DNA of 36,227 bases from Dehalococcoidales bacterium. GTDB taxonomy: Bacteria; Chloroflexota; Dehalococcoidia; Dehalococcoidales; RBG-16-60-22. The notes beneath the pieces were generated by a model. The model did no database searches. It was not told where the DNA came from and saw nothing but the letters and a program-made list of their open reading frames with translations. Made by a program: the position numbers and the translations under genes. The stretch covers positions 1-36,227 of the forward strand of contig DAIQQC010000005.1 in the NCBI GenBank assembly GCA_036787005.1. Direction: 5' to 3'. The number at the start of each line of letters is the position of its first letter. The first letter of the stretch is position 1. Below, in pieces: positions 217-30,976 of this stretch.

Positions 217-230
217 TTCAATAGAATATA

Positions 231-316
231 CCGCTAGGGGTGCTCCGGGCTGAGATCCCCGATAAATCGGGGGACCCTTGGAACCTGAACTCGGTAATCC
301 GAGCGTAGGGAAGCGG
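231..316 (+). promoter_or_regulatory. TPP (THI-box) riboswitch aptamer
   Basis: CCGCUAGGGGUGCUCCGGGCUGAGAUCCCCGAUAAAUCGGGGGACCCUUGGAACCUGAACUCGGUAAUCCGAGCGUAGGGAAGCGG. Canonical GGGGUGC, CUGAGA, ACCUGA and GUAGGGAA cores; P1 closes ccgc/gcgg; lies directly upstream of thiC. Confidence 0.9.
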
Positions 317-325
317 CCTTACTGA

Positions 326-363
326 AACCAGGGGTCAATTCAGCCTCTGGTTTTGTTGTTTTT
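326..363 (+). terminator. riboswitch expression-platform intrinsic terminator
   Basis: 9-bp stem aaccagggg (326..334) / cctctggtt (344..352, one G-U), 9-nt loop, then TTGTTGTTTTT. Confidence 0.6.
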
Positions 364-7895: not shown

Positions 7896-8245
7896 GGGGA
7901 CGCGCGGATTCGACAGGGGAAGTGAGTTACGGGACTGCAGGCCGAGGTGCCGCTCCCTCATTAAACCGGCGGCAAAAAACAAACGCAGAACCAGAAATGG
8001 TTGCAGCCTAACTAAATAGGTTGCCATCTGTCCCGACCCCACCCCGGCGGGTCGGGAACGGGTGCCGAAAAGCTGGGGTGCCATTGCCTCCACGCCGGTA
8101 AAGGCGATGAAAGATGTACCGGCTGGCCCGCCTTAACTCGGTCAGTTGAGGTAAGACGGGCAAGATAAAAGAGCTGACTAAGCTTGTAGCAGGTCCCGGG
8201 CAGCTTCTTCTGGACGGGGAGTTCGACTCTCCCCCGTCTCCACCA
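7896..8245 (+). ncRNA. ssrA: tmRNA (ssrA)
   Basis: 5' GGGGACG pairs with 3' CGUCUCC-ACCA, including the G3:U alanine identity wobble. T-arm-like GGGGAGUUCGACUCUCCCC. Candidate tag frame 7985..8011: GCA GAA CCA GAA AUG GUU GCA GCC UAA = AEPEMVAA*. Confidence 0.9.
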
Positions 8246-8258
8246 GGCACTTTAATAG

Positions 8259-8332
8259 TCTCCACCGCTACGTTATCCCGGCTCTCCCCCGCCTCCAAAA
8301 CAGGGGAGAGCTTAACAGCGGTGGAGATTTTT
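8259..8332 (+). terminator. two-tier hairpin plus T5, probable ssrA terminator, built from ssrA-3'-end-like sequence
   Basis: Outer 11-bp stem tctccaccgct (8259..8269) / agcggtggaga (8317..8327). Inner 9-bp stem gctctcccc (8281..8289) / ggggagagc (8303..8311). Followed by TTTTT (8328..8332). Confidence 0.5.
8282..8297 (+). repeat. degenerate direct copy of the ssrA 3' terminus (att-like scar)
   Basis: ctctcccccgCctcca (8282..8297) matches ssrA ctctcccccgTctcca (8227..8242) at 15/16. In addition, gtctccacc (8258..8266) repeats ssrA 8236..8244 at 9/9. Confidence 0.45.
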
Positions 8333-8379
8333 ACATCATCTGACCCGAGAGTGTTGCCCTTGAGTCGGGCAATTTGTCT

Positions 8380-8765
8380 GAGCGGGGAGTACTTTTCAAG
8401 GGCTTCTACTAATTGTTCCATTAGATAACGAATGTAGCGGTCGCCGCAGCCGGGAACGCGGTCACGTATCAGGCGCATCGCCAGGAATTCATCGTGGCTA
8501 GCCTTCGTCACCAGCGTGGCGAAAGTACGGCGCAGATCATGACCGGTGAAGCCTTGTATCCCGGCTCTCGCCTGCAGCCGTCCGATTAAGTCGGATATGC
8601 CGTCTTCCTCCAGTGGCGCCTACGGAGGCTCAGGACTTCAAGGGTTTTCAAGAAGCCCACTGTCCAAGTCTATCCGTAGAAAAGCTGAAGTTAAGTTATA
8701 CCTTCACGCGAGTGAAATGCCATCAGCACAGAGACTCGGACAAAGTAAAATACTAGCAATGTCGT
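8380..8765 (-). pseudogene. tyrosine recombinase/integrase remnant (N-terminal half missing, internal deletion, frame breaks)
   Basis: Minus frame below the in-frame TAG at 8620..8622 reads APLEEDGISDLIGRLQARAGIQGFTGHDLRRTFATLVTKASHDEFLAMRLIRDRVPGCGDRYIRYLMEQLVEALEK (HxLRxTFAT box and catalytic-Tyr region). A second frame at 8641..8691 reads TSAFLRIDLDSGLLENP* (the LRxxDIDL region). No start and no core-binding domain. Boundaries approximate. Confidence 0.7.
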
Positions 8766-8786: not shown

Positions 8787-9083
8787 CTAGATTTGATGCA
8801 CTTCTCCAGTAGCTTTATTTTTCCAATATCCCCGCTGCTGTAATGGCCAGTTAAAGGTGATTGCGCCGGGACGGGGGCAATCATTAGCGCAGCAGCCGCA
8901 ATACCAGCATTCGTCAGGATGTAATATAATTGGCGGTTTACCTTTTTGGGGATTAGGCATGTAAACATCTACCTGGCAGACTTCCACGCAGTGGTTGCAT
9001 CCATTGCATTTATCCTCATTAAAAGTCACTGGCTTGTTCGGGGAGGTAATATTGGGCATTGCGACTACTTTTGCTTTAGCCAT
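8787..9083 (-). CDS. 2x[4Fe-4S] ferredoxin, AprB-like small subunit
   Basis: 98 aa. CNGCNHCVEVC and CWYCGCCANDCP motifs; GGAGGA RBS; 42 nt downstream of the flavoprotein gene. Confidence 0.85.
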   Translation of the reverse strand: MAKAKVVAMPNITSPNKPVTFNEDKCNGCNHCVEVCQVDVYMPNPQKGKPPIILHPDECWYCGCCANDCPRPGAITFNWPLQQRGYWKNKATGEVHQI

Positions 9084-9125
9084 CTTTTTCCTCCAAAATC
9101 ACTCTGTTAACCGGCAATAAATCTC

Positions 9126-11075
9126 TCATTTTTTCCTGTATACGCCGGCATAATCTTTATTACAGGCTTCATATTGGTTCTTCATATTGCCCCAGAAAGC
9201 CTGCGGCAGCGAGCCGGTCTTGACCTTACCCTCTTTTAGCGCCAGCGTGATGTATTTGTTCCACTCCGGCGGGTCCAACTCGGGGTAGTCTATTCTCCGG
9301 AAATTCAGCGGCAGGCTGCTGGCTTTACGCCCCAACATAGCCTGGATAATAATCTGGGCATACGTTAAAAGGCTGGTATCTTCCAGGCTGCGCATCAGCT
9401 TGTGCGGGTCCATGGCGAACAGCAGAGGGACCGATTCTTTTTCTATTTTCGACAGGACACCAAGACCCATTTTGAGAAGATTCTCAGTCTTGAATTCACT
9501 GACATAGAATTGCATGGCCCTCCCGATGCCGGCATGCAGCTCTTTCCATTCCATGCCGCTGGTGCGTTTAATCGGGGCGTAAACGCGTTTTTTCTCACGG
9601 TCGATCTGGGCGCGGGAAACCTTAGGTTCAGCGCACTCTCTGGCACAAGCCGCGGCTTTTCTTCCGGCATACCTGCCCGTGGATGCCGCGAAGCTGTGGT
9701 CTTCCGGCGAGAACATCTGGGTTCCGGCCGCATATAGTCCATCGAGAGTAGTTTTCAGGTTCCAATCGACCAGCACGCCGCCTCCGTAGCCGGGCTCGCC
9801 CCATTGCGGCGGGCTGTTGCCTTCGATGTATTTATAACTTTGCAGCAGGTCGCGGCTCTCGTCATAGCCCGCCTTGTTGAAAGTATCGATGATGATTTTC
9901 GTCGTCGATTCTTCTCCCAGCATCAAGTTCCAGGTGGCCCTTCGCTCGACGTCCGGCATGGCCGGGAAATCGCCGTAGAAAGGCAGCTCGTACTTGCCCG
10001 TTTGTATGCCCTTGCGGATTTCCTCCTCGACACTGATAGTAGGCATCATAGCCCCCGCGTCTTCCCATCCCTGTATCGGCAATGGCAGTCTTTTCCCCTT
10101 AGCATCGACGAGCGGGACGTTCTCATAGCTAGCGTCACCAGCCCCCGTATACCACTTATGTTTCAAGCCTGTGGCGATACGTAAGACCCCGGTATTTTCC
10201 ATGTTCGTCAGCGCTGCCCCGGCCCTCCAGGCCATGACGGTGCCGTCACCGGTAATCGTCCGGGACATCATGTTGGAATAGCCGCTAAGTTCAGTATTTA
10301 TTACCCACATCGACCCGCCCCCGGCAGTGGCCAGGACGGCCGATTTCGATTTGAAAATCATGAACTCGCCGGTGCGGTTATTTACACCGGTAGCCCCGAC
10401 GACCCTGCCTCCCTGGACTCCGTTCTCGGTCAGCAGGCTGGTCACCATCACCCGATCGTAAATTTTCACTCCCAGGCGCTTGCATTCCTTTTTTAGTGCC
10501 GGCTTAAAGGTCGACCCCCAAACCCGGATCACCACGTTGTTGAGTTTTCCCTCCGGATTACTCTTGAAAGTGGTCGGTTTTATCATCCCGGGCACATAGC
10601 TGTGTACCTTCGTATAGCGCGGGGATATCATCAGCTTGGTCTTATCATCCCGGCCTTCCGCGCCTTTGTATTCGTCTTTGGTATCCCTAATTTTACCGCC
10701 CATCTGCTCCATTTCCAGCAGGGTATCCCAGTCCTCGCGGCACTGTATTTGGACGCCGATGCCATTGCCGTACGGGCGGTTGGCCATATGTTGCGCCCAC
10801 TCGTCCGGATCGACGTTAGATAAAGGATTTGCGGGGGCATTACACCAGTGGTCACACCCCGGGCCCCCGGCACCGCTCCTGATAGTATCGCCCTTTTCCG
10901 CCAGGACGACCTTTAGTCCCTGCCGGGCGGCGCTGATGGCTGCCCAGCAGCCGGCAATGCCGCCCCCGATGACCAGTACGTCCGCATCGATTTCTTGTTC
11001 CTCATCGTAGCAGATAGGATACGCCCAAGCCGGTGCGTGGCCTTGTTCTATTAAGTAATCGTGCCATGTGCTCAT
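9126..11075 (-). CDS. FAD-dependent oxidoreductase of the AprA/fumarate-reductase flavoprotein type, substrate unknown
   Basis: 649 aa. Dinucleotide fold DVLVIGGGIAGCWAAISAARQG...LAEK; later GLYAAG FAD motif and C-terminal helical capping domain; AAGGAGAA RBS. Family call by layout only. Confidence 0.75.
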   Translation of the reverse strand: MSTWHDYLIEQGHAPAWAYPICYDEEQEIDADVLVIGGGIAGCWAAISAARQGLKVVLAEKGDTIRSGAGGPGCDHWCNAPANPLSNVDPDEWAQHMANRPYGNGIGVQIQCREDWDTLLEMEQMGGKIRDTKDEYKGAEGRDDKTKLMISPRYTKVHSYVPGMIKPTTFKSNPEGKLNNVVIRVWGSTFKPALKKECKRLGVKIYDRVMVTSLLTENGVQGGRVVGATGVNNRTGEFMIFKSKSAVLATAGGGSMWVINTELSGYSNMMSRTITGDGTVMAWRAGAALTNMENTGVLRIATGLKHKWYTGAGDASYENVPLVDAKGKRLPLPIQGWEDAGAMMPTISVEEEIRKGIQTGKYELPFYGDFPAMPDVERRATWNLMLGEESTTKIIIDTFNKAGYDESRDLLQSYKYIEGNSPPQWGEPGYGGGVLVDWNLKTTLDGLYAAGTQMFSPEDHSFAASTGRYAGRKAAACARECAEPKVSRAQIDREKKRVYAPIKRTSGMEWKELHAGIGRAMQFYVSEFKTENLLKMGLGVLSKIEKESVPLLFAMDPHKLMRSLEDTSLLTYAQIIIQAMLGRKASSLPLNFRRIDYPELDPPEWNKYITLALKEGKVKTGSLPQAFWGNMKNQYEACNKDYAGVYRKK

Positions 11076-11146
11076 CTTTTCGTTCTCCTTCCGATAATTT
11101 CAGTAATAAAATGGATCTAAGGGAAATTACCATTTTCCTAAAATAA

Positions 11147-12043
11147 CTAGATTAGACCCCTTAATCTTGGGTCAAGCGCGTCCCGAAGGCCATCACCGAC
11201 GACATTAAAAGCAAACACAACCAGCATGATCGCCAATCCCGGAGCAAATGACAACATGGGATTAGTGAGCAGGTAACTACGGCCATCATTGATCATCGAT
11301 CCCCAGGCGGCGCCGGGCGGCGCGATACCTATGCCAAGGAAGCTTAAACCCGCTTCTGCCAGAATAAGGTTACCTAATTGCATCGTCACGATAACAATTA
11401 ACGGAGGAAATGCATTGGGGAGGATATGCGCCAACATAATACGCCAGTCACTCGAACCCAAAGATTTCTGAGCCAGGATGTAATCATATTCCCGGATACT
11501 TAAAGTTACTCCATTTGTTACGCGCGCATAACCCGGTATGGTGGCAATGCTTAAAGCGATGATTACGTTTCGGATACCATTACCGAGCAGGGCAGAAATC
11601 ACGAGCGATAGTATCAGCATCGGGAAGCACATCAAAGCATCCATTGACCGCATGATTAAAGCGCTGAGAAAGCCCCTGGTATAACCTGCGATAATACCCA
11701 ACAGGATACCTATTATTGCCCCGACCGCGACCGAGATAAAACCTACCTCAATCGCCGTCCGTGAGCCATAGATCACACGGCTAAATGTGTCACGCCCTAA
11801 CAAGTCACAGCCTAGCCAGTGTTTGGCGCTGGGTTGGGCCAGAGAATCCGCGCCGACAGGTGTATAAGGATCATACGGCGCTAATTGAGGAGCAAATATA
11901 GCGGTGAAAAAGAATATTAAAAGCACTACCAGGCCTACCACAACGGCAGCCTTGGCAAAGAACACGCGTCTGAACCGTTTCCATTCGCTAACGCGCCCAT
12001 TGCTTTCGGGTAAATCTAACACATCAATCGTTTGCAGTGCCAT
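11147..12043 (-). CDS. ABC transporter permease (DppC/OppC-like)
   Basis: 298 aa, about 6 TM; SLGSSDWRIMLAHILPNAFPPL loop typical of peptide/nickel-type permeases. Confidence 0.9.
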   Translation of the reverse strand: MALQTIDVLDLPESNGRVSEWKRFRRVFFAKAAVVVGLVVLLIFFFTAIFAPQLAPYDPYTPVGADSLAQPSAKHWLGCDLLGRDTFSRVIYGSRTAIEVGFISVAVGAIIGILLGIIAGYTRGFLSALIMRSMDALMCFPMLILSLVISALLGNGIRNVIIALSIATIPGYARVTNGVTLSIREYDYILAQKSLGSSDWRIMLAHILPNAFPPLIVIVTMQLGNLILAEAGLSFLGIGIAPPGAAWGSMINDGRSYLLTNPMLSFAPGLAIMLVVFAFNVVGDGLRDALDPRLRGLI

Positions 12044-12051
12044 ATATATCT

Positions 12052-13011
12052 CTAACCATACTTGATTCTTGGGTCAAACCATACATAGGATATATCAACG
12101 AGGAGGTTTATCAAAAGAATAGCGACGGAAATAACAAGAGTAATTCCCTGCACTACTACGTAATCCTGGCCAAAAATACTACTCACCATCAAACGGCCGA
12201 CCCCTGGAATCGCAAAAATCGTTTCGATGAGTACCGAACCGCCGAATATCATCCCGACACCCATGCCTACCAGCGTGATAACCGGAATCAGGCTGTTTTT
12301 TAGTGCATGTTTGAGAATGATTACTCGTTCGCTTAAACCTTTGGACCAGGCAGTCCGAATATAATCCTGGCTGATGGTTTCCAGCATACTCGATCGCATT
12401 TGACGGGCATTGGCCGCTATAGCAAAAAGTGATGAGCAGATTACCGGCATAACTAATTGCCTTGTACTTAGTACAAAATCAGTAAAAGGTGATGTATAAC
12501 CTGAAATTGGCAACCAGTGAAGCTTTAACCCGAAAAGGAATATCAATAAGATGCCCAGCCAGAATACGGGGATGGTTATGCCAATGTAAGTCAGCGGTGT
12601 GACTATTCTATCCGGCCATTTTCCTTTTCTTATACCCGCCCAGAGTCCGATGAGAATGCCTAATATTGACCCGAATACGAGCGAAACAAAACCAATATAG
12701 ATCGTCTTGGGTAATCTTTCAGCTAAAAGCTTGCTTACATCTTCATGATAGTAAATGGATTGACCAAAATTTCCACGTAACACACCGCCAATCCACTTAA
12801 AATACTGAACTGCCAGGTTATCGTCCAGGCCGTATTGATGGCGGAGAGCCTCAATCTGTTCCGGCGGCATAGCCTGCACGGAAGACTGTTGTCCTACATA
12901 AATCAAAATCGGGTCTCCCGGCAGCAGTCGCATTACGAAAAATACGATCCAGGTAACGATAAACAAGACTATTATGGCCTGTATAATTCTGCGTACAATG
13001 TATGTCGTCAC
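12052..13011 (-). CDS. ABC transporter permease (DppB/OppB-like)
   Basis: 319 aa. Typical start MTTYIVRRIIQAIIVLFIV...LLPGDP; AWSKGLSERVIILKHALKNSLIP EAA-type loop. Confidence 0.9.
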   Translation of the reverse strand: MTTYIVRRIIQAIIVLFIVTWIVFFVMRLLPGDPILIYVGQQSSVQAMPPEQIEALRHQYGLDDNLAVQYFKWIGGVLRGNFGQSIYYHEDVSKLLAERLPKTIYIGFVSLVFGSILGILIGLWAGIRKGKWPDRIVTPLTYIGITIPVFWLGILLIFLFGLKLHWLPISGYTSPFTDFVLSTRQLVMPVICSSLFAIAANARQMRSSMLETISQDYIRTAWSKGLSERVIILKHALKNSLIPVITLVGMGVGMIFGGSVLIETIFAIPGVGRLMVSSIFGQDYVVVQGITLVISVAILLINLLVDISYVWFDPRIKYG

Positions 13012-13098
13012 GCCTTTTTACCTTAGCAGGATCTGGAATATTACCATTTTTGAACCGGCTACTCCAGCACGTTGCTGCACATGGTGATGCGTTGTTTT

Positions 13099-13148
13099 CC
13101 GGCCGGATGGCTCAATAGCGCCAAATCACCGGAGGGCCATCCGGCCGG
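13099..13148 (-). promoter_or_regulatory. intercistronic 13-bp perfect hairpin between the SBP and permease genes
   Basis: ccggccggatggc (13099..13111) / gccatccggccgg (13136..13148), 24-nt loop, no U-tract on the transcribed (minus) strand. Likely an mRNA-stabilising or processing element rather than a terminator. Confidence 0.5.
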
Positions 13149-13169
13149 TATTATCTATAACGTCAGAGC

Positions 13170-14822
13170 CTAATGCTCATCCATCCAGTCGTCTGCAGGG
13201 CTCCAAATGATGCCGTGAATCTTGGGATATTCGGTATGGACATAGGTTTGCATAACCGCGGCTTCAGCGGATCTCCACAACGGGATATACAAGCAATCTT
13301 CGCCCGCCTGTCTGACGGCTGCCGATATCTTGGACATAGCCTCAGCGGCGCTATCATACTGCGGTGAGATTGCTTCATTACAAAGATTCAGGAAAGCCTC
13401 GGACTTATACATATTGGTAGTGCGGAAGGTCATTGGATTCGGGCCGTAGTGAACGAACAAGTCAGAAGCGTCCGGGTTGATGCCGGAAGCGGTGATACAA
13501 AGATCATCCCAGCCGGCGCCTCCGCCGAATAACGTGCCGAAGTAACGCCCGAGGTCGGCAATATCCGGCTCAACGGTGATACCAGCAAGACCCAGATAGT
13601 GTACGAACAGGGCCATGACATCGTTTGTATTTCCCATAGATCCCGCCAGGATCTTCAACGTTAAACCCTCAGGGAACCCGGCTTCATCCAGGAGCCGTAT
13701 GGCTTCGTCAGTATTAAAAGGCCGCGGATCATAACCCGGTACATAGCCCGGCCATGTCTGGGAAGCCATCTGAGTGAGAGGCTCATAAAGGCCTTGACCC
13801 AATGTCTGTGCCATGGTCGTTCTGTCAAGGGCATACTCAATCGCTTCGCGGACTTTTATATTGCTTAGCGGGCTATCCGGATTGTTAGAGCTTAGGAGAA
13901 GGACGTTGAACATACCGGGGCCCCAGTTGATCTTAAACCCCTGTGCCTGAAGGTTCTTGATGTCCTGAACGGAATTGGTATCGTTCCAGAGATCCGCCTC
14001 GCCGGCCTGTATCGAGGCGGAGGCAACCGTAGGATCAGTTATCATGCGCATGATTATTCCATCCAGGTACGGTTTACCCGGCTGCCAGTAGTTGGGGTTC
14101 TTCACAAAGGTAATATGGTCATCTCTTACCCATTCACTTACCGTAAAAGGACCGGTACCTACGGCATTTTCACGCGCCCATGCTTTACTCGTTTCATTAT
14201 CGCTGCCTGACGGAATCGTGCCGCCGGCAGTCAGATAGGATGTTGGGGAAATACATTGCGTTAACCCTAAGTTTTGTACCGTCTGCCAGTCAAATGACGT
14301 CATATGCATAACGAGGGTATTTTCGTCTTTGACTTCGAGAGACGCAATAAGATTGGTACCCGTGCCAGACCTATTGTCTATAGCCAGTTGTACGTTCCAG
14401 CGGACCGCTTCGGCGTTAAACGGTGTGCCGTCACTAAATTCAACGCCTTCCCGCAAATGCCAGGTAATAGTATTGGCGGTGTGGTCAGTCTCCCAGGATA
14501 AAGCCAAAACCGGTACCAGGTTGCCGCCGTCAGATCCCCATTCGCAAAGATGTTCTAGGACCGGCAGCATGTAATAGGAATCAGAAGGAGCTTTTTCCGG
14601 CCCATAGCCAAGATTGTTCGGGATAGCACCGCTGACTATTCTTAGAGTACCGCCAGATACTATCGTAGATGTGGGCGTTGGCGTTGGTGATGTAGTTGGT
14701 GTAGGTGATGTAGTTGGTGTAGGTGATGATGTTGGAGTCGTCGTGGCTTTGCCGCAGCCGGCAAGAACCATGACACTGGTGAGAACGAGTGAGAGGATTA
14801 GGTATAAAATACGTTTCTTCAC
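13170..14822 (-). CDS. ABC transporter substrate-binding lipoprotein, family 5 (peptide/nickel/opine type)
   Basis: 550 aa. GTG start with GGGGAGG upstream; lipoprotein signal ...VLAGC; Thr/Pro linker TTTPTSSPTPTTSPTPTTSPTPTPTST; size and layout of SBP_bac_5. Confidence 0.9.
   Translation of the reverse strand: MKKRILYLILSLVLTSVMVLAGCGKATTTPTSSPTPTTSPTPTTSPTPTPTSTIVSGGTLRIVSGAIPNNLGYGPEKAPSDSYYMLPVLEHLCEWGSDGGNLVPVLALSWETDHTANTITWHLREGVEFSDGTPFNAEAVRWNVQLAIDNRSGTGTNLIASLEVKDENTLVMHMTSFDWQTVQNLGLTQCISPTSYLTAGGTIPSGSDNETSKAWARENAVGTGPFTVSEWVRDDHITFVKNPNYWQPGKPYLDGIIMRMITDPTVASASIQAGEADLWNDTNSVQDIKNLQAQGFKINWGPGMFNVLLLSSNNPDSPLSNIKVREAIEYALDRTTMAQTLGQGLYEPLTQMASQTWPGYVPGYDPRPFNTDEAIRLLDEAGFPEGLTLKILAGSMGNTNDVMALFVHYLGLAGITVEPDIADLGRYFGTLFGGGAGWDDLCITASGINPDASDLFVHYGPNPMTFRTTNMYKSEAFLNLCNEAISPQYDSAAEAMSKISAAVRQAGEDCLYIPLWRSAEAAVMQTYVHTEYPKIHGIIWSPADDWMDEH
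14671..14736. repeat. in-frame tandem repeat encoding the (S/T)PTPTT linker of the SBP
   Basis: 18-nt unit ggtgatgtagttggtgta at 14686..14703 and 14704..14721, a partial third copy to 14736, preceded by ggcgtt x2. Confidence 0.8.
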
Positions 14823-14942
14823 TTTAACAAATACCTCCCCTTATAATAACCAATGTGCCCTCGGGAACAGAAATATTCATGTCATTATGCTACCTCCTTA
14901 CTTCTTTTAGGGCGGTTGTTGCTACTCCGTAAAATATGTTAT

Positions 14943-15054
14943 ATTGCGTTGATTGCAGGGATTGACCCTGTTTTGGCTTAGACACATTATATCACGAGCT
15001 GTCAATAGAAGTTAGTTTTTATAGTACAAGATTGCAACTATTGAGATAATTAGT
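14943..15054. promoter_or_regulatory. two triplets of 9-nt-phased ATTG-type direct repeats in the divergent promoter region
   Basis: ATTGCG 14943, ATTGCA 14952, ATTGAC 14961; then ATTGCA 15031, ATTGAG 15040, ATTAGT 15049. Also GTCAAT (15001..15006) inverted relative to ATTGAC at 14961. Confidence 0.3.
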
Positions 15055-15078
15055 ATCCGTTTGCAGGAGACACCTATT

Positions 15079-16404
15079 ATGAAAAAAGAATGGACCAAGA
15101 TGAATCCTGATGAAAAACGCGCCGAGAGATTTGAGCGCTGGTTATCGCCGGAGAATGTTAAATTTGTTGGTAAGAACGCGGAGACAGATTATAAAAAACG
15201 TGTTACCAGGCTTATCAAGGCGATTAACTGTGAGATACCTGACCAGGTACCGTTATTACTGCCTTCCTTTCCGCTCTATTATGCCGGCATGACGCTTAAA
15301 GAAGCGATGCATGATAATAAAAGAGCCTGCGCCGCTTACCGTAAATTTTTCAAAGCCTTCCCGGAAAGTGATACTTTTTCCGGCGGCGGCGCAATGTCTG
15401 CCAGAGGGTCTGAGATCCTTGACAGCCGGACTATGCGCTGGCCGGGTCATGGTCTACCGGATGACGCCAGCCTGCCAAACTTCGTGGAAGGTGAATACAT
15501 GAAGGCAGATGAGTATGATTTACTGATCAACGACCCCGGCGACTGGTGTTTCCGCTATTATTTACCGCGTTCGCTGGGGGCACTAAAGCCTTTTGCACGT
15601 TTTGCGCCGCTTTCACATATGATGGGAATGGCCAACCGGTTTGTGGCGCCGGCTGTCAACCCGGACGTACGCGCGGCTTTCCAGGCAATAATAGATTATG
15701 GTATCGAGGAAGAAAACTGGAATAAACCCTTCATGGAGTTCGCCCGGGAAGGTCTGGAAGCGGGTTATCCGTCTTTCTGGGGAGGGCAATCCCATGCGCC
15801 GTTCGATATCCTGGCGGACACGTTAAGAGGAACCAGGGGAATTATGATGGACATGTTCCGTCAACCGGAAAAAATACTGGAAGCAATAGAGATGCTGACC
15901 CCGATGAATATCAATGTAGGTGTACAAATGGCTAATGCCTCGCGTAGCCCGATTGTTTTTTTTGCCCTTCATAAAGGGGACGATGTTTTTATGTCCGATA
16001 CGCAATTCCAGAAATTTTACTGGCCGTCCTTAAAGAAGGTGGTACTTGGCTTGATCCAAGAAGGCTGTGTGCCATGTCTCTTTGCCGAGGGTAAATATAG
16101 TAATCGCCTCGACCTTGTCACTGACTTGCCGAAAGGGAAAGTTTATTGGCACTTCGACCAGACTGATATGGGAAAGGCAAAGAGATTACTCGGCGGCAAG
16201 GCCTGCATCGCCGGTAATGTCCCATCTTCACTATTGATAACTGGTACGCCTAAAGAGGTGAAAGCCTATTGCCGGCACCTTATCGAGGTTTGCGGTGTTG
16301 GCGGCGGTTACGTCCTTACTTCCGGCGCAGGTATCGATAAAGGCAACCCGGATAACCTGCGTGCCATGATAGAAGCCGTTAAGGAATACGGAGTTTATAA
16401 GTAG
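15079..16404 (+). CDS. uroporphyrinogen-decarboxylase (URO-D) family protein, function unknown (decarboxylase or MtaA-like methyltransferase fold)
   Basis: ORF 15061..16404. ATG 15079 lies 8 nt after AGGAGA. TIM-barrel URO-D-like C-terminal half (...FDILADTLRGTRGIMMDMFRQPEKILEAIEML..., ...NLRAMIEAVKEYG). Family call from memory of the fold signature only. Confidence 0.65.
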   Translation: MKKEWTKMNPDEKRAERFERWLSPENVKFVGKNAETDYKKRVTRLIKAINCEIPDQVPLLLPSFPLYYAGMTLKEAMHDNKRACAAYRKFFKAFPESDTFSGGGAMSARGSEILDSRTMRWPGHGLPDDASLPNFVEGEYMKADEYDLLINDPGDWCFRYYLPRSLGALKPFARFAPLSHMMGMANRFVAPAVNPDVRAAFQAIIDYGIEEENWNKPFMEFAREGLEAGYPSFWGGQSHAPFDILADTLRGTRGIMMDMFRQPEKILEAIEMLTPMNINVGVQMANASRSPIVFFALHKGDDVFMSDTQFQKFYWPSLKKVVLGLIQEGCVPCLFAEGKYSNRLDLVTDLPKGKVYWHFDQTDMGKAKRLLGGKACIAGNVPSSLLITGTPKEVKAYCRHLIEVCGVGGGYVLTSGAGIDKGNPDNLRAMIEAVKEYGVYK

Positions 16405-16536
16405 AAGCCAGCTGCTCAACGTCCCATAGTTGCAGGCGGAGGTGAACTATATTATCATGTCACCTAGCATAACGGATGATTCTCGTGATACTCTCAAACA
16501 AAATCTCCGGGGCATTAATCAGGACAAGGATTTAAC

Positions 16537-17526
16537 ATGGCGGAGTTATTAAGGGTCAACAATCTGGTAACCCAGTTTAAGACCGATAACGGAGTGGTTA
16601 AAGCTGTTAACGGTATCTCCTACTACATTGATGAGCAGGAAATCTTCGGCCTCGTTGGTGAAAGCGGTTGCGGTAAGTCCGTGAGTCAACTCTCCGTCAT
16701 GCAGCTTATTAACGCCCCGGGTGAGATTATCGGCGGCGAGGTGATCTTCGAGGGGCAAAACCTCTTGAAATATCCGGCGCACAGCCGTGAGATGCGCTCT
16801 ATCCGCGGCGCCAAAATAGGCATGATTTTCCAGGAGCCCATGACCTCTCTCAATCCCGTCCTCACTATTTCCCACCAGCTGACCGAAATGCTTATCCTGC
16901 ATTTGAAAATGAACCAGGATGCCGCCCGCAAAAGGGCTATCGAGCTCATGGGTCTGGTGGGTATCCCCGCCCCCGAAAAGCGCATCGATGACTACCCCCA
17001 TAATTTCTCCGGCGGTATGCGCCAGCGTGTCATGATCGCCATGGCGCTTTCCTGTAACCCCCGCATCCTCATCGCCGACGAGCCTACCACCGCCCTCGAT
17101 GTCACCACCCAGGCGCAACTCCTGGAATTGATGAAGGATATGGTACAGCGCTTCCGCGCTTCTCTGGTTATCGTCACCCATAACCTCGGCGTTGTTGCCC
17201 GCTACGCTCAGCGCATTTACATCATGTATGCCGGTAGAATCGTCGAGTCCGGCACGACCAAGGACATATTCAGTAACCCGCGTCACCCTTATACCATCGG
17301 CCTCCTCAAATGTATCCCCAGACTCGACGAAGAGGAGGGAAGAAAGCTCATCCCCATCGATGGGCTGCCCCCCAACCTCATCAATATGCGGCCCACCTGC
17401 GCTTTCCTGCCCCGCTGCTCCTGGCGAATTGATAAATGCTTCAAAGAACCCTGGCCTGAGCTCATCGCTGTTAATGGCAACCACTTTATCCGGTGTTACG
17501 CCGATACCAAGGAGATGAGGCCGTGA
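16537..17526 (+). CDS. ABC transporter ATP-binding protein (OppD/DppD-like)
   Basis: Walker A GESGCGKS, signature FSGGMRQR, Walker B ILIADEPTTALD, C-terminal oligopeptide-type extension with Cys residues. Confidence 0.9.
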   Translation: MAELLRVNNLVTQFKTDNGVVKAVNGISYYIDEQEIFGLVGESGCGKSVSQLSVMQLINAPGEIIGGEVIFEGQNLLKYPAHSREMRSIRGAKIGMIFQEPMTSLNPVLTISHQLTEMLILHLKMNQDAARKRAIELMGLVGIPAPEKRIDDYPHNFSGGMRQRVMIAMALSCNPRILIADEPTTALDVTTQAQLLELMKDMVQRFRASLVIVTHNLGVVARYAQRIYIMYAGRIVESGTTKDIFSNPRHPYTIGLLKCIPRLDEEEGRKLIPIDGLPPNLINMRPTCAFLPRCSWRIDKCFKEPWPELIAVNGNHFIRCYADTKEMRP

Positions 17527-18512
17527 ACCAGTCTCAGGACAACGTTATTTTAAACGTGTCTGATTTGAAGATGTATTTCCCTGTCCTTCGCGGGTTGCTG
17601 CGCCGCAAGGTAGCGGACGTTAAAGCTGTCGATGGTGTCTCTTTTCAACTGAAGCGAGGTGAGACCCTGGGTCTCGTCGGCGAGAGCGGCTGCGGTAAGA
17701 CCACAATCGGCCGATGCGTTTTGGGACTTTACCGTGCTACGGCCGGTAAAATAATGTTCCTGGGCGAAGATATCACCACTCTATCTGAAAAGAAACTGCG
17801 TAATGTGCGCAAAAATATCGCCCTCATCTTCCAGGATCCCTATTCATCTCTCGACCCGCGCCAGTCCGCCGGCAGTATCGTCGGCGAGCCTTTGAGAGTC
17901 CACACTGTGGTACTGACCAAGCAAGAATACAAAAATAGAGTGGAAGAGCTTTTCCGCGTCGTTAGCCTCGACCCCTCGATGGCCAACCGCTTCCCCCATG
18001 AGTTTTCCGGGGGCCAGCGCCAGCGTATCGGCGTCGCCCGCGCGCTCGCTTGCTCTCCTTCCCTCATCGTTTGCGATGAACCTATCTCTGCCCTTGACGT
18101 CTCCATCCAGGCGCAGATCATCAATCTGCTGGAGGAATTACAGGACCACAACAAGAACCTGAGCTACCTCTTCATCGCCCATGACCTTTCCGTCGTCCGG
18201 CACATCTCGGACCGCGTCGCGGTGATGTACCTCGGGCATATCGTGGAAATCTGCCGGTCACGGGAGCTTTATGATAACCCCCTTCATCCCTATACCCGGG
18301 CTTTGCTTTCCGCTGTGCCTATCGCCGACCCGTTTCTCGAAGAAACGCGGGAGCGCATCATCCTTAAAGGCGAGGTGCCCAGCCCGCTTAACCCGCCGCC
18401 CGGCTGCCCGTTCCACCCGCGCTGCTTTATGGCTGTCCCGGAGTGCAGCCAGGCTGTGCCGCCTTTAAGGACCATCAGCGAAGGTCACGAGGTCGCCTGC
18501 ACCAGGGTTTAG
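17523..18512 (+). CDS. ABC transporter ATP-binding protein (OppF/DppF-like)
   Basis: ORF 17493..18512. GTG 17523 overlaps the upstream stop (GTGA) and follows GGAG. Walker A GESGCGKT, signature FSGGQRQR, Walker B LIVCDEPISALD. Confidence 0.9.
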   Translation: MNQSQDNVILNVSDLKMYFPVLRGLLRRKVADVKAVDGVSFQLKRGETLGLVGESGCGKTTIGRCVLGLYRATAGKIMFLGEDITTLSEKKLRNVRKNIALIFQDPYSSLDPRQSAGSIVGEPLRVHTVVLTKQEYKNRVEELFRVVSLDPSMANRFPHEFSGGQRQRIGVARALACSPSLIVCDEPISALDVSIQAQIINLLEELQDHNKNLSYLFIAHDLSVVRHISDRVAVMYLGHIVEICRSRELYDNPLHPYTRALLSAVPIADPFLEETRERIILKGEVPSPLNPPPGCPFHPRCFMAVPECSQAVPPLRTISEGHEVACTRV

Positions 18513-18678: not shown

Positions 18679-20364
18679 GTGAACAAGGTGTCTCCCGTGA
18701 AGTCGACCGGGCGAGGGGTAAATAGAGCTCCGTCAAGAGCGCACACTGTAAATGCGCCCGTTAAACCCTTGAAAGGGAATAAAGGTTTCTTAGATGCCAT
18801 TTTCAACAGCCTCGAGGACGAACTGATAGTTATTGACCGGGACTACCGGATAATACAGGCCAATGAGGCTGCCCTGTCAAGACACGGCCGCCACAGGCGG
18901 GGAATAATCGGGAAACCCTGTTATGAGATTAGTCATGGCCAGCCGGGGCCGTGCCATCCGCCCCATCATGAATGCCCGCTCCAGGAAGTATGGGAAACCG
19001 GTAAACCGGCACGGGTAACTCACTGTCATATCAGTCATGTCAACGGTGAAGAGCGCGAAAGATACCTTGATATTATCGCCTCTCCAATTACAGACAAACG
19101 GGGAAATGTGATCGCCGTTACCGAAATAATGCGTGACGTGACGGAGGCGAAAGAAGCGGAATCGAGAAGCGTTGAGGCTTACAAAAACCTCGTAGCTTTA
19201 AATACGATTGCCACGGCGGTGAACCAATCGCTGGACCTGGATACCGTGCTTTACAGCGCCATTGAGAAGACGCTGGAGATAATGAGGAGGAACACCGGGG
19301 GAATACTGTTGCTGGATGAAGAAAAGCAAATGTTATGCTACCGCGTCCATAACGGCCTCTCCAAGGAGTATGCTCAATCCGTGTGTTTTCGTCTGGGTGA
19401 AGGTATAGTAGGGAAGGTAGCCCAGAGCGGCGAGGCTATCATGGTGGACGATGTCTCAACGGACCCCCGTATTGCCCATCCCGGTCTTATCGCCGCCGAA
19501 AGGCTGCGTGCCTTTGCCGCTATTCCGCTTCGGGTAAGAGATAAAATCCTGGGAGTGCTTACCATTGCCAGCCATGATGCCCGCAAATTCTCTGGTGAAG
19601 ATGTCCAGCTCCTGGAAAGCATCGCCTCGCAGATAGCCATCGCCGTTGAAAATGCCACGCTGCACCAGGAGGTACAGCATAAAGATGAGAGCCGCGGTGA
19701 GCTCTTGGGCGAGATATTCTCCATCCAGGAGGAAGAACGGAGGAGAATTGCCCGGGAGCTGCACGATGAAACAAGCCAGTCGCTTGCCAGCCTGGCGGCC
19801 AGTCTTGAAGCGGTTGCCGTCATGTTGCCCTCCGGCGCCGATAAGGCCAGGGCCAGACTAAAAAAGATAGAGCAGGTAGCACTGAGCGCCCTTGACGAGA
19901 TACACAGGATAATTTACGAGCTACGGCCCACTTTACTCGATGACCTGGGTCTGGTTGCCGCTGTACGCTGGTTGGCCAATAATAACCTGGGGTCGGCCGG
20001 CATTGAGGTTATCTTTAAGACTACCGGAAGGGTAAGAAGGTTAACTCCCAAAGTGGAGACGATCCTTTTCAGGGTGATCCAGGAAGCGGTGAGCAATATT
20101 GCCAGGCACGCTCACGCCAGGCACGTAGATCTAACACTCCGTTATAAAAAGGATACCATTATTGTTCATATTAAAGACGATGGAGAAGGCTTTGCCGTGG
20201 AAGAGGCGATGAGTTCCCGGGAAAGGCCGCGGGGATTGGGGTTGCTGGGTATGAAAGAAAGAGTGGAACTCGTGCACGGTGCCTTGAATATCCGGTCGGT
20301 TCCCGGCAGCGGCACTGAAGTTCAAATGGAAATTCCCCTGAACCCGGAAGTCGCCGATGGATAA
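18679..20364 (+). CDS. soluble sensor histidine kinase, PAS(Cys/His-rich)-GAF-HisKA_3-HATPase_c
   Basis: 561 aa. GTG start 9 nt after AGGAG; no TM segment; H-box EERRRIARELHDETSQSL; C-terminal ATPase boxes (DDGEGF, GLGLLGMKERV). Confidence 0.85.
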   Translation: MNKVSPVKSTGRGVNRAPSRAHTVNAPVKPLKGNKGFLDAIFNSLEDELIVIDRDYRIIQANEAALSRHGRHRRGIIGKPCYEISHGQPGPCHPPHHECPLQEVWETGKPARVTHCHISHVNGEERERYLDIIASPITDKRGNVIAVTEIMRDVTEAKEAESRSVEAYKNLVALNTIATAVNQSLDLDTVLYSAIEKTLEIMRRNTGGILLLDEEKQMLCYRVHNGLSKEYAQSVCFRLGEGIVGKVAQSGEAIMVDDVSTDPRIAHPGLIAAERLRAFAAIPLRVRDKILGVLTIASHDARKFSGEDVQLLESIASQIAIAVENATLHQEVQHKDESRGELLGEIFSIQEEERRRIARELHDETSQSLASLAASLEAVAVMLPSGADKARARLKKIEQVALSALDEIHRIIYELRPTLLDDLGLVAAVRWLANNNLGSAGIEVIFKTTGRVRRLTPKVETILFRVIQEAVSNIARHAHARHVDLTLRYKKDTIIVHIKDDGEGFAVEEAMSSRERPRGLGLLGMKERVELVHGALNIRSVPGSGTEVQMEIPLNPEVADG

Positions 20365-21007
20365 GATAAAGATACTGGTGGTGGATGACCACGCCGTGTT
20401 GCGCGACGGCATACATGCTTTGCTGGGTCTGAACGACGACATCGAAATAGTCGGCGAAGCATCCGAAGGAAAGGAAGCGGTCGCGAAGGCACAGGAGCTG
20501 ATGCCTGACGTAGTGATTATGGACATCGCCATGCCCGGGATGGATGGCCTGGAGGCCACCCGCCGCATCAGGAAAAAACACCCCAAAATGAAGGTCCTGG
20601 TCCTGACCCAGCACGATAATAAAGAGTACGTACTATCGGTCATCAAGGCAGGGGCTTCCGGGTACGTACCCAAGCGGGCGCTGGGTTCAGAACTGGTATC
20701 GGCGATACGCGCTGTAAAGGAGGGAGACTCTTTCCTGTACCCGTCCGCAGCCGCCGCGCTGATCGAAGATTACCTCCAGCAGACCAAGGACCAGGAGCCC
20801 TATGACCAGCTATCGGCGAGGGAGAGAGAGATATTTCAGCTTATTGCCGAGGGGCATACCAGCCGGGAGATTGCCGACATGTTGTTTCTTAGCCAGAGGA
20901 CGGTCCAGGGACACCGGGTAAAAATAATGGAGAAGCTGAACTTGCATAACCGGACGGAACTGATCAAATATGCCATGCGCAAGGGAGTGGTAAGCCTGGA
21001 TACATAG
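20357..21007 (+). CDS. NarL/LuxR-family response regulator
   Basis: 216 aa. Receiver domain (VVDDH..., MDIAMPGMDG) plus LuxR HTH (LSAREREIFQLIAEGHTSREIADMLFLSQRTVQGHR). Start overlaps the kinase stop by 8 nt. Confidence 0.9.
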   Translation: MDKIKILVVDDHAVLRDGIHALLGLNDDIEIVGEASEGKEAVAKAQELMPDVVIMDIAMPGMDGLEATRRIRKKHPKMKVLVLTQHDNKEYVLSVIKAGASGYVPKRALGSELVSAIRAVKEGDSFLYPSAAAALIEDYLQQTKDQEPYDQLSAREREIFQLIAEGHTSREIADMLFLSQRTVQGHRVKIMEKLNLHNRTELIKYAMRKGVVSLDT

Positions 21008-28600: not shown

Positions 28601-28723
28601 CTTAAGTGGTATCGACTGCGGGGAGGCCGCCAGGGCTACATTGCCGTCAAGTAATTTGAGCAGAAAAACGCCGCCCACGCTCGCCCCTGAGGCTTTTAGA
28701 AAATCCCTTCGGCTCAGCTCCAT
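25649..28723 (-). CDS. fdnG: formate dehydrogenase catalytic alpha subunit, selenocysteine-containing, Tat-exported
   Basis: ORF-track pieces 28151..28750 and 25649..28102 are one frame joined through TGA at 28151..28153: ...[35 protein letters not shown] (the FDH Sec-His signature). ATG 28723 lies 6 nt after AAAGGAG and gives MELSRRDFLKASG (twin-arginine signal). Mo/W-bisPGD family layout. Confidence 0.9.
28111..28145 (-). promoter_or_regulatory. candidate bacterial SECIS hairpin 3' of the UGA
   Basis: mRNA reads UGA CAUUC GCCC ACUGU CGCCA GUC UGGCG CAGAGCUUC GGGC. Apical 5-bp stem with a GU-containing loop starts 14 nt after the UGA; closing GCCC/GGGC stem. Confidence 0.35.
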
Positions 28724-28912
28724 TATTTCTCCTTTCGCTCTTTCTACCATACCGCTCGGATAAATGGTAATTGATCAGGGCATGCGCATAACAGACAACC
28801 TTTCTAATAAGAATAACGGGTACTGGCCTGGTCGGTATGCGAAAAAGTGCTCATGTTGTTGATATAAACGCCCCAAATCCTCAGGAAAAAGTACCCAATT
28901 TATCCGGAAACA

Positions 28913-30910: not shown

Positions 30911-30976
30911 CGCCGCGACCCAGTGTCTTATCTTGCCCGATATTTCCTTTACCGTGGCTATATCACTACCCTGCTC

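Follow-up and report, generated by a model that had tools for sequence, protein, structure and literature searches.

Gene organization of the module

The stretch of DNA analysed here, referred to as the window, comprises 36,227 nucleotides of a Dehalococcoidales bacterium (Chloroflexota; GenBank assembly GCA_036787005.1, contig DAIQQC010000005.1). Within it lies a module of eight genes, in which a large flavoprotein binding flavin adenine dinucleotide (FAD) and a small ferredoxin (Fd) are encoded together with an ATP-binding cassette (ABC) importer and a protein of the URO-D superfamily (Table 1). On the minus strand the gene of a substrate-binding protein (SBP) is followed by those of two permeases, the flavoprotein and the ferredoxin, and on the divergent plus strand the URO-D gene is followed by two ATPase genes. 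This order had been described in an earlier note made from the sequence alone, and it was confirmed by the open reading frames (ORFs) and their domains: all eight genes were recovered (ORF list, Pfam and NCBIfam scans) at the same coordinates and with the same domains, including FAD_binding_2, Fer4 and URO-D, the three Pfam domains expected for the enzymes.

The intergenic gaps of the minus-strand operon are 158, 8, 71 and 42 nt, and GGAGG-like ribosome-binding sites precede the SBP, flavoprotein, ferredoxin and URO-D genes. In the case of the URO-D gene this site serves the ATG at 15079 (441 aa), which is a more likely start than the TTG at 15061. The divergent region contains one plus-strand sigma-70-like match (14962–14990), which is a consensus match only, and a scan for promoters and terminators gave matches not clearly beyond the shuffled expectation. 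No cobalamin or other riboswitch was found within the module by the Rfam scan. That the two operons are co-expressed is something we only infer. A 167-aa ORF downstream of the ferredoxin gene (8008–8511) is an artefact overlapping the transfer-messenger RNA (tmRNA) gene and an integrase fragment; it was also tested, and ruled out, as a partner of the u158 type described below.

Table 1. Features of the module and its borders in the window.
Feature	Positions	Strand	Evidence and remarks
tmRNA gene	7896–8245	+	ARAGORN; Rfam RF00023, 178.7 bits; tag peptide AEPEMVAA
Tyrosine-recombinase C-terminal fragment	~8330–8620	-	translation '...GFTGHDLRRTFATL...RYIRY...', stop codons upstream
98-aa 2x[4Fe-4S] ferredoxin	8787–9083	-	Fer4_7, Fer4, Fer4_10
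FAD flavoprotein (649 aa), AprA / PAPS-reductase-alpha / fumarate-reductase superfamily	9126–11075	-	FAD_binding_2
ABC permease, OppC/NikC/GsiD-like	11147–12043	-	BPD_transp_1 and OppC_N
ABC permease, OppB/NikB-like	12052–13011	-	BPD_transp_1 and BPD_transp_1_N
Family-5 substrate-binding lipoprotein	13170–14822	-	SBP_bac_5, lipobox, Thr/Pro-rich tether
Intergenic region separating the divergent SBP and URO-D genes	14823–15078		256 nt; presumed bidirectional promoter and operator
441-aa URO-D-superfamily protein	15079–16404	+	Pfam URO-D; alternative start TTG 15061
ABC ATPase, OppD/DppD-like	16537–17526	+	ABC_tran and oligo_HPY
ABC ATPase, OppF/DppF-like	17493–18512	+	ABC_tran and oligo_HPY
PAS-GAF-HisKA_3 histidine kinase	18679–20364	+	domain match
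LuxR/GerE response regulator	20357–21007	+	domain match

The flavoprotein and its ferredoxin partner

The flavoprotein matched FAD_binding_2 (PF00890) with 92.2 bits (gathering threshold 20.4) and carries a dinucleotide-fold motif of the N-terminal GxGxxG type (VIGGGIAGC, residues 35–43). A PDB search with a profile of its family gave as nearest structures the alpha subunit of 3'-phosphoadenosine 5'-phosphosulfate (PAPS) reductase (8a8o_A, E 5.8e-43) and AprA, the flavoprotein of adenosine 5'-phosphosulfate (APS) reductase, from Archaeoglobus fulgidus (1jnr_A, 1.1e-38), with the flavoproteins of succinate dehydrogenase (Sdh), fumarate reductase (Frd) and NadB matching more weakly (1e-19 to 1e-11). 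The single sequence was also nearest to PAPS reductase alpha and AprA. The alignments to these two proteins are limited to the segments that bind FAD and the helical domain at the C-terminus, and in neither type of search did the capping (substrate) domain (residues ~295–430) align to AprA or PAPS reductase. This domain is large, clade-specific and strongly conserved; of the residues assigned to its pocket, D75-H76-W77, K305-H306-K307-W308-Y309 and R378 are invariant. The description 'AprA-like', used in the earlier note, holds solely for the domain that binds FAD and for the helical one at the C-terminus.

In the HMMER alignment to 1jnr_A, Asn74 and Trp234 (A. fulgidus AprA numbering), the residues holding the FAD-sulfite adduct and AMP, are replaced by Cys78 and Met269, and R299 falls near the position of Arg265, in an uncertain register. 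The flavoprotein stayed under every curated NCBIfam cut-off: its best score was 190.8 against 587 for PRK08275 (NF006131), and it reached neither the AprA models (TIGR02061, 104.3 against 641.75; PRK06854, 119 against 557) nor sdhA_frdA (95 against 567) and nadB (54 against 453). The stretches corresponding to the Sdh/Frd motifs read MENTGVLRIA, PGYGGGV and EDHSFAASTGR, and the His and Arg binding the dicarboxylate in Sdh, Frd and NadB (motifs HPT, HYxMGG and HGANRLG) are not kept; Gly and Ala stand in place of the HYxMGG His and the HGANRLG Arg. On these scores and residues the identities APS reductase, Sdh, Frd and NadB were rejected.

The ferredoxin carries two cluster motifs, C26xxCxxCxxxC36 and C59WxCxxCxxxC69P (cysteines 26/29/32/36 and 59/62/65/69, the last followed by Pro), and exceeds the cut-off of Fer4_7 (39.9 against 27). 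Its match to the aprB model TIGR02060 (21.5 against 135.65) is confined to model positions 4–63 of 132. It is similar to PAPS reductase beta (E 3.4e-5) and AprB (1jnr_B, 5.8e-3), and generic polyferredoxins score better than both. The C-terminal tail with which AprB (~130–150 aa) wraps AprA is absent from this 98-aa protein. A ferredoxin homologue (55–94% identical) lies directly downstream of the flavoprotein gene at every locus that has room for it. The ferredoxin is of a generic two-cluster type, and the flavoprotein has it as its obligate partner.

No sat, cysC/D/H, qmo, dsr, asr or sulfite reductase genes were present in the window or among the recurrent or batch-scanned neighbours of the pair at the 80 loci described below. 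Taken together, the scores below cut-off, the unaligned capping domain, the replacement of Asn74 and Trp234 and the lack of sulfur genes nearby indicate that the flavoprotein is not an APS reductase. It is predicted to be the large subunit of an AprAB-style two-subunit oxidoreductase, from a new clade and with a substrate other than APS. The comparison with AprA and AprB made in the earlier note was therefore upheld for the nearest solved relatives and the two-subunit layout, and not for the capping domain, the active-site residues, the AprB tail or a sulfur-related gene context.

An exhaustive search of 1.84 billion representatives clustered at 50% identity resolved the relatives of the flavoprotein into three tiers. 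All flavoproteins of at least 70% identity fall into a single 50% cluster; about two dozen full-length paralogous clusters follow at 36–49% identity, and the third tier is formed by ~560-aa proteins at 31–38%. None of the ten nearest cluster representatives attained a curated cut-off (PRK08275 scores of 132–340 against 587). In the literature searched on AprA-like proteins, on O-demethylases of Dehalococcoidia, on resorcinol reductase and on clusters of transhydroxylase genes, no description of the family was found. The family forms a new clade within known superfamilies, and not a new kind of system.

The URO-D-family protein

Pfam URO-D (PF01208) matched the 441-aa protein with 76.3 bits (threshold 23.9), covering profile positions 141–346, that is the C-terminal half only. 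The HemE equivalog TIGR01464 was far from reached (24.7 against 302.95) and the PROSITE-type HemE signatures PxWxMRQAGR and GF..xP[FYW]T are absent, so HemE identity was rejected. The MtaA/CmuA model TIGR01463 was also missed (54.3 against 235.4), and the sequence lacks the zinc-binding HxC motif. Its best PDB sequence match was CdmB (9rui; E 2.6e-36, 128 bits), with UroD/HemE structures at 1e-4 or weaker. An AlphaFold2 (AF2) model of the protein (predicted local distance difference test score, pLDDT, 92.4) retrieved UroD and MtaA-type structures of Methanosarcina mazei in Foldseek (TMt 0.62–0.70, probability 1.0).

CdmB is the substrate-specific methyltransferase I (MT I) of a corrinoid system acting on chloromethane; its closest fold is UroD, it does not need zinc, and it groups with the O-demethylases MtvB, OdmB and VdmB (PMC13222342). 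By its scores and its lack of HemE motifs, the window protein clearly belongs on the corrinoid-methyltransferase side of the superfamily and not on the decarboxylase side. Of the two roles offered in the earlier note, decarboxylase or corrinoid-dependent methyltransferase, the CdmB score favours the latter. At two loci in other genomes, L072 and L083 (locus labels denote flavoprotein-bearing loci in other genomes), the gene immediately upstream of the URO-D homologue encodes a B12-binding corrinoid protein, and genes of a short-chain dehydrogenase/reductase (SDR) and the FAD-Fd pair lie beside them. As the curated models were reached by neither enzyme, both the flavoprotein and the URO-D protein stand outside the clades of known function.

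The clusters of L072 (5709–19861) and L083 are compact and comprise genes for a LysR regulator, the corrinoid protein, URO-D, SDR, FAD-Fd, MmgE/PrpD, ATC_hydrolase and two further SDRs. They also hold a second FAD_binding_2 protein (482 aa) and a 721-aa protein with Fer2, Fer4 and Pyr_redox_2 domains; this NAD(P)H-linked iron-sulfur flavoprotein may serve there as the electron donor system.

Distribution and conservation of the gene neighbourhood

Relatives of the flavoprotein (E 1e-10 or better) form more than 3,400 clusters at 90% identity. The best 120 are 77–92% identical to it. The window itself matches a JGI metagenome contig, and its closest relatives are metagenome-assembled genomes (MAGs) of Dehalococcoidia. 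In a search of one genome per species, 80 loci with a flavoprotein copy of 70–85% identity were identified, which span Chloroflexota, Acidobacteriota, Desulfobacterota, Spirochaetota, Bacteroidota and Clostridia. Neighbours were counted in a well-flanked subset of 33 species loci (at least 4 kb on each side of the flavoprotein gene). A URO-D homologue occurs in 13 of these (Chloroflexota 10/16, Desulfobacterota 3/5), in eight of the 13 within two genes of the flavoprotein; a family-5 SBP (SBP5) gene is likewise found in 13, a split UGSC-domain gene in 10, an aldehyde:ferredoxin oxidoreductase (AOR) gene in nine and an SDR gene in seven.

The same gene set as in the window is present in at least 10 distinct Dehalococcoidia genomes, and the order URO-D, (IclR), SBP-permease-permease-FAD-Fd, with URO-D divergent, in at least eight Dehalococcoidia species. 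The neighbourhood, which could have been peculiar to this genome, is conserved, and the co-localisation is beyond chance, since the gene set recurs. Two Desulfobacterota loci (L068 and L075) have FAD-Fd-UROD-AOR on one strand, and the reverse search, starting from the neighbourhoods of URO-D homologues, led back to the Fd/FAD pair in L088. The conserved core is the flavoprotein-ferredoxin pair, and the URO-D gene and the importer are frequent, not universal, partners.

The URO-D partners are 35–90% identical to the window protein and the flavoproteins 70–92%. These ranges would fit a conserved enzyme at the centre, supplied by peripheral enzymes that vary: being far better conserved than its URO-D and transporter partners, the flavoprotein probably acts on a shared intermediate of several substrates.

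Tandem or near-tandem duplicates of the flavoprotein-ferredoxin pair, either two close copies or one copy per paralog clade, were found in L003 (40–2417), L039, L068, L069, L076 and L094; they suggest diversification of the substrate range inside one genome. Three further families recur beside the pair. The UGSC-domain gene is split by an in-frame TGA ('…AVIMGMGH*SLCVAAV…'; L056 8250–9990, L052, L009, L016 and L074, among others) and probably encodes a selenoprotein of ~565 aa with an N-terminal signal-like segment, whose big C-terminal part has no Pfam match and whose PDB sequence search was empty. The u158 family (~155 aa; its cupin-like motifs are HxH…E and P-x-G-x2-H) adjoins FAD-Fd in L002 (12405–12872), L070 and L081, and the u322 family (~320 aa) in L008 (18519–19598), L052 and L016; neither matches Pfam or PDB sequences.

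The importer and its regulators

The importer is a complete system of the Opp/Dpp/Nik type, composed of a family-5 SBP, two BPD_transp_1 permeases and two oligo_HPY ATPases. The SBP scored 236.9 bits with SBP_bac_5 and has a lipoprotein signal (…VLAGC, lipobox LAGC) followed by a Thr/Pro-rich linker. Its best solved relatives (E 1e-28 to 1e-24) are an unnamed peptide SBP, GsiB/YliB, AgaA and NikA, and it remained below the equivalog cut-offs of nikA (139 against 393), CntA (110.5 against 800), GsiB (104.5 against 594), DppA (74 against 1005) and OppA (51.8 against 947). The OppB-like permease came near the Opp2B cut-off (318.5 against 350), and the OppC-like permease was below every NCBIfam equivalog cut-off. 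The public gene calls of L006 for the SBP (466 aa) and the first permease (293 aa) start late relative to the window genes, and that of the SBP drops the lipoprotein signal peptide; good ribosome-binding sites precede the longer ORFs.

The first window ATPase is 80% identical to the ATPases encoded directly after the orthologous permeases in L003, L023 and L036, and the second is 79–81% identical to the second ATPase of the same loci. Other loci lack ATPase genes within 10 kb. The earlier note rightly described a transporter divided between both operons of the window, yet this division is local to the window genome; since L003, L023 and L036 keep the ATPase genes contiguous with the permeases, the split was rejected as a conserved design.

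On the plus strand of the module, 167 nt beyond the last ATPase gene, lie the genes of the PAS-GAF-HisKA_3 kinase and the LuxR-type regulator, which may belong to the module. A HisKA_3 kinase gene and a GerE regulator gene flank the transporter-Fd-FAD cluster of L094, and the closest syntenic loci have an IclR-type regulator gene at the position of the divergent region instead.

Genomic setting

The module starts just beyond smpB and the tmRNA gene that directly follows it. The recombinase fragment next to the tmRNA gene (also given as 'GHDLRRTFATL…RYIRY') gives a weak Pfam Phage_integrase match (E 0.0034), and the GC content falls from ~0.59–0.62 to 0.44–0.53 over the module. Together, the tmRNA gene and the fragment resemble what an element inserted at tmRNA would leave behind. 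No copy of the 3' tmRNA end of 13 nt or more was found as a direct repeat that would mark an att site at the far edge of an island, which leaves the island without a defined boundary. In other genomes the module occupies unrelated positions, and these, with cross-phylum identities of at least 70%, point to its horizontal acquisition.

Elsewhere in the window, the catalytic subunit of an Fdn-type formate dehydrogenase (25649–28750, minus strand) is split by an in-frame TGA ('…EHQARL*HSPTV…'), a selenocysteine codon. The subunit has a twin-arginine translocation (TAT) signal, and its neighbours are FdnH-like, cytochrome b, FdhE-like and TatC genes. A second pair of GAF-PAS-HisKA_3 kinase and LuxR-type genes adjoins this operon (28991–31642, minus strand) and resembles the pair of the module in architecture. 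A heliorhodopsin gene (33767–34531, minus strand; Pfam E 9e-97) adjoins DegV and glutamate dehydrogenase genes in this apparently anaerobic Dehalococcoidia genome, and a thiamine pyrophosphate (TPP) riboswitch (226–328, plus strand; Rfam 73.7 bits) lies upstream of thiC.

Clues to the substrate

A lead not contained in the earlier note, anaerobic phenolic catabolism, emerged from related loci. A paralogous FAD-Fd pair (663 aa and 112 aa, 43% identical) adjoins URO-D in L003, L023 and L039 and is part of two informative clusters. In L092 it is accompanied by MarR, two Amidohydro_2, tripartite ATP-independent periplasmic (TRAP) transporter DctPQM, tannase, UbiX-like, LpdD and UbiD genes; in L094 an Fd-FAD-FAD-Fd arrangement lies with HisKA_3/GerE and TRAP genes, two AthL-like transhydroxylase large subunits, a small subunit and UbiD. 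These two settings are unmistakably phenolic-acid clusters. The anaerobic route of tannin breakdown consists of tannase, gallate decarboxylase and pyrogallol-phloroglucinol transhydroxylase (PMC10470551), and the use of pyrogallol was previously predicted for sediment Chloroflexi (PMC3971608). A ferredoxin-dependent resorcinol reductase is known biochemically (PMC10470551); no gene or sequence assigned to it was found in the literature searched.

Weaker signs of the same kind accompany the main clade, that of the window flavoprotein. They include a tannase gene at the head of the L075 cluster, AthL-like genes after FAD-Fd in L008 and L028, a TRAP transporter after FAD-Fd in L056 and, in L001, a gene of the 2,4-diacetylphloroglucinol (DAPG)/phloretin-hydrolase family; L002 has chalcone-isomerase-like, BcrAD and HGD-D genes. 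Carboxylesterase/BD-FAE genes adjoin URO-D or FAD genes. The link of the module to phenolics is suggestive and not proven.

Proposed mechanism and alternative explanations

The module is very probably dedicated to the uptake and transformation of a compound, with a flavoenzyme whose substrate is none of APS, PAPS, fumarate and aspartate. As the earlier note had stated, a characterised pathway with such a gene combination cannot be named, and none was found in the literature or curated models searched. The substrate would be a single small organic molecule taken up from outside; a methylated (methoxylated) phenolic acid, or a conjugate of such an acid, is the most likely. The lipoprotein SBP, the two permeases and the two ATPases, all of which are present, would import it. 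The URO-D protein would act as a substrate-specific MT I and transfer a methyl group to a corrinoid protein whose gene lies elsewhere in the genome. The flavoprotein and ferredoxin would form an AprAB-style heterodimer, whose two [4Fe-4S] clusters would link FAD to the low-potential ferredoxin pool for a two-electron flavin step on the carbon skeleton. Most plausibly, the flavin would reduce an enone-type tautomer of a hydroxylated aromatic ring, or else a conjugated side chain, by hydride transfer, and the flavoprotein would probably work on a common intermediate funnelled from several peripheral substrates. The full chain, from import of a methylated, probably phenolic, compound through demethylation to ferredoxin-linked reduction, is plausible, if somewhat more apt to fail than to hold. 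A broader proposal, that the ~650-aa AprA-like flavoproteins and their ferredoxins are a widespread and so far unrecognised class of ferredoxin-dependent dearomatising (ring or enone) reductases of hydroxylated aromatics, the 'resorcinol-reductase type' to which no genes are assigned, is unlikely as it stands.

Several observations weigh against the chain of import, demethylation and reduction. Characterised O-demethylase and Cdm systems usually cluster genes of the corrinoid protein, methyltransferase II (MT II) and activator; none of the three (the last as a reductive activator) is encoded in the 36-kb window, and a corrinoid protein gene occurs in just two of the 13 URO-D-containing loci (2/80 loci, L072 and L083). 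The co-occurrence counts for URO-D are raw, without a chance expectation from the density of URO-D paralogs in whole genomes, and Pfam batch scans of 205 unannotated neighbours of the pair gave no dominant extra family. Aromatic markers lie near the main clade in only ~8 of the 80 loci, and the strongest phenolic settings are those of the 43%-identical paralog, not of the window's own clade. Family-5 SBPs are not known to import phenolic acids, and the nearest solved SBPs bind glutathione, opines and nickel chelates. Some recurrent partners (MmgE/PrpD, Dak, CoA-transferases, the UGSC selenoprotein and the cupin-like families) have no obvious fit. The direction of electron flow in the FAD/Fd pair is a proposal, and the AF2 model of the flavoprotein was unusable (mean pLDDT 41, from a 30-sequence alignment of 77–92% identity).

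It is unlikely that the imported substrate is non-aromatic (for example a small polycarboxylate, a sugar acid, or an amino-acid conjugate of the opine-like or N-methylated kind) and that the flavoprotein is a TcuA-, NadB- or SdhA-like dehydrogenase, oxidising a C–C or C–N bond beside a carboxylate and passing electrons to ferredoxin, with AOR oxidising the resulting aldehyde. Such a substrate would suit the SBP: glutathione, agropinic acid and nickel chelates are the ligands of its nearest solved relatives, and its best NCBIfam matches are NikA, CntA and GsiB. The flavoprotein superfamily handles mostly carboxylates. MmgE/PrpD, Dak, iron-containing alcohol dehydrogenase (Fe-ADH), SDR and AOR genes recur near the pair, rhamnose and pectate-lyase-like genes lie near the URO-D/Fd/FAD set in L088, and the neighbours are heterogeneous overall. 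However, the dicarboxylate-binding positions of Sdh/Frd are not conserved, and neither the tannase, UbiD, AthL and LpdD settings nor the kinship of the URO-D protein to O-demethylase-type MT I would be explained. A role of the URO-D protein as a cofactor-free decarboxylase or other TIM-barrel lyase, preparing the flavoprotein substrate as UbiD and Amidohydro_2 decarboxylases may do in the paralog clusters, is quite unlikely: its similarity to CdmB far exceeds that to any UroD, the HemE motifs are missing, its N-terminal half falls outside the URO-D profile, and a corrinoid protein gene adjoins URO-D in L072 and L083. Decarboxylation is the founding activity of the superfamily, and the lyase role would agree with the lack of corrinoid protein, MT II and activator genes in the window and in 11 of the 13 URO-D-containing loci, with the pairing of FAD-Fd and decarboxylases in the paralog clusters, with the missing HxC motif and with the lead of UroD enzymes in the fold search. 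Yet CdmB itself works without zinc, and its absence from the fold matches probably reflects a library (to 2026-04-08) that predates its publication.

That the pair is a sulfur enzyme, either an APS/PAPS reductase or one acting on an imported organosulfur substrate by AprA-like flavin-N5 chemistry, is very improbable. PAPS reductase alpha and AprA are indeed the nearest solved structures, the two-subunit layout is the same, the ferredoxin comes close in size to PAPS reductase beta (104 aa), one paralog record is labelled 'adenylylsulfate reductase subunit alpha' (an automatic annotation) and in L074 the pair has a rhodanese gene nearby; against this stand the AprA and PRK08275 scores far under the cut-offs, Cys78 and Met269 in place of Asn74 and Trp234, the unaligned capping domain and the lack of sulfur genes in the window and among recurrent neighbours. 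The known 'AprAB-like' clade is situated amid sulfur-assimilation genes (PMC8477390), unlike the family described here. There is equally little to expect from accessory electron transfer in place of a substrate-transforming role, for example a reductive activator restoring the corrinoid of the URO-D partner to Co(I). The pair occurs without a URO-D gene in 20 of the 33 well-flanked loci, including all those of Acidobacteriota and Clostridia, its tandem duplicates (L003, L039, L068, L069, L076 and L094) point to substrate-range diversification, and its large, conserved, clade-specific capping domain is typical of a substrate-binding enzyme. An activator would nevertheless account for the direct adjacency of the pair to URO-D genes at many loci, for its combination of low-potential iron-sulfur clusters and flavin, and for the lack of a RACE-type activator gene near URO-D genes in the neighbour batch scans.

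Significance

Despite its abundance and unusual conservation, the flavoprotein is annotated only as 'FAD-dependent oxidoreductase' or 'succinate dehydrogenase/fumarate reductase flavoprotein', and many of its recurrent partners (among them the UGSC selenocysteine protein, two cupin-like families and URO-D-type proteins) are uncharacterised too. If the pair is indeed a phenolic reductase, genes would become available for a long-known, genetically orphan anaerobic activity, with a bearing on polyphenol breakdown in anoxic peat and sediments (the 'enzyme latch' question), and a concrete substrate class would be named for non-dehalogenating Dehalococcoidia. If it is dearomatising, URO-D-type O-demethylases, esterases/tannases and decarboxylases would supply its substrates, and Dehalococcoidia, Acidobacteriota, Desulfobacterota and Clostridia of peat, sediments and guts would possess an oxygen-independent route to polyphenol- and lignin-derived carbon. 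Even if the phenolic reading fails, metagenome surveys of sulfur metabolism or respiration should leave these flavoproteins out of their AprA, Sdh and Frd counts.

Comparison with known systems

The closest characterised systems are the dissimilatory APS reductase AprAB of A. fulgidus (1jnr) and the PAPS reductase of Methanothermococcus thermolithotrophicus (8a8o), with which the window pair shares a large FAD subunit encoded adjacent to a small 2x[4Fe-4S] subunit, as well as homologous FAD-binding and C-terminal helical domains. The window flavoprotein is ~80 residues longer than PAPS reductase alpha. The pair differs from AprAB in the unaligned capping domain, the absent AprB tail and the lack of sulfur-metabolism genes nearby. 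The 'AprAB-like' paralogs of the DiSCo study, which sit among sat/cysDC/asr/TusA genes and were proposed to function in sulfur assimilation (PMC8477390), have in common with it a tail-less ferredoxin subunit, a capping domain that has gaps, and anaerobic hosts. In contrast to that clade, the window family occurs amid transporter, URO-D, AOR, SDR, esterase, tannase, UbiD and AthL genes.

Like the importers of the Opp/Dpp/Nik/Gsi (PepT) family, the window importer has a family-5 SBP, permeases with the N-terminal features of OppB and OppC and oligo_HPY ATPases, but no component attains an equivalog cut-off, and its genes are split divergently and interleaved with those of two enzymes. The corrinoid-dependent MT I enzymes of the UroD superfamily include CdmB and the O-demethylases MtvB, OdmB, VdmB and MtoB. 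The URO-D protein resembles CdmB in size (~430–440 aa) and in the N-terminal extension to the TIM barrel; its identity to CdmB is only ~30% over the C-terminal half. The pairing of such a gene with an ABC importer and a flavoprotein was not reported for characterised MT I systems in the literature searched.

The reductases of resorcinol, phloroglucinol and hydroxyhydroquinone can be compared by a proposed functional analogy only. Purified resorcinol reductase has subunits of ~50 kDa, compared with 72 kDa for the flavoprotein, and phloroglucinol reductase is an NADPH-dependent SDR. The reductases of this group add two electrons from a low-potential donor to a meta-hydroxylated ring in its keto form (PMC10470551). 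Genes of the resorcylate-decarboxylase family (Amidohydro_2), gallate-decarboxylase-like genes and transhydroxylase genes are present in the paralog settings and fit the analogy with a ring reductase.

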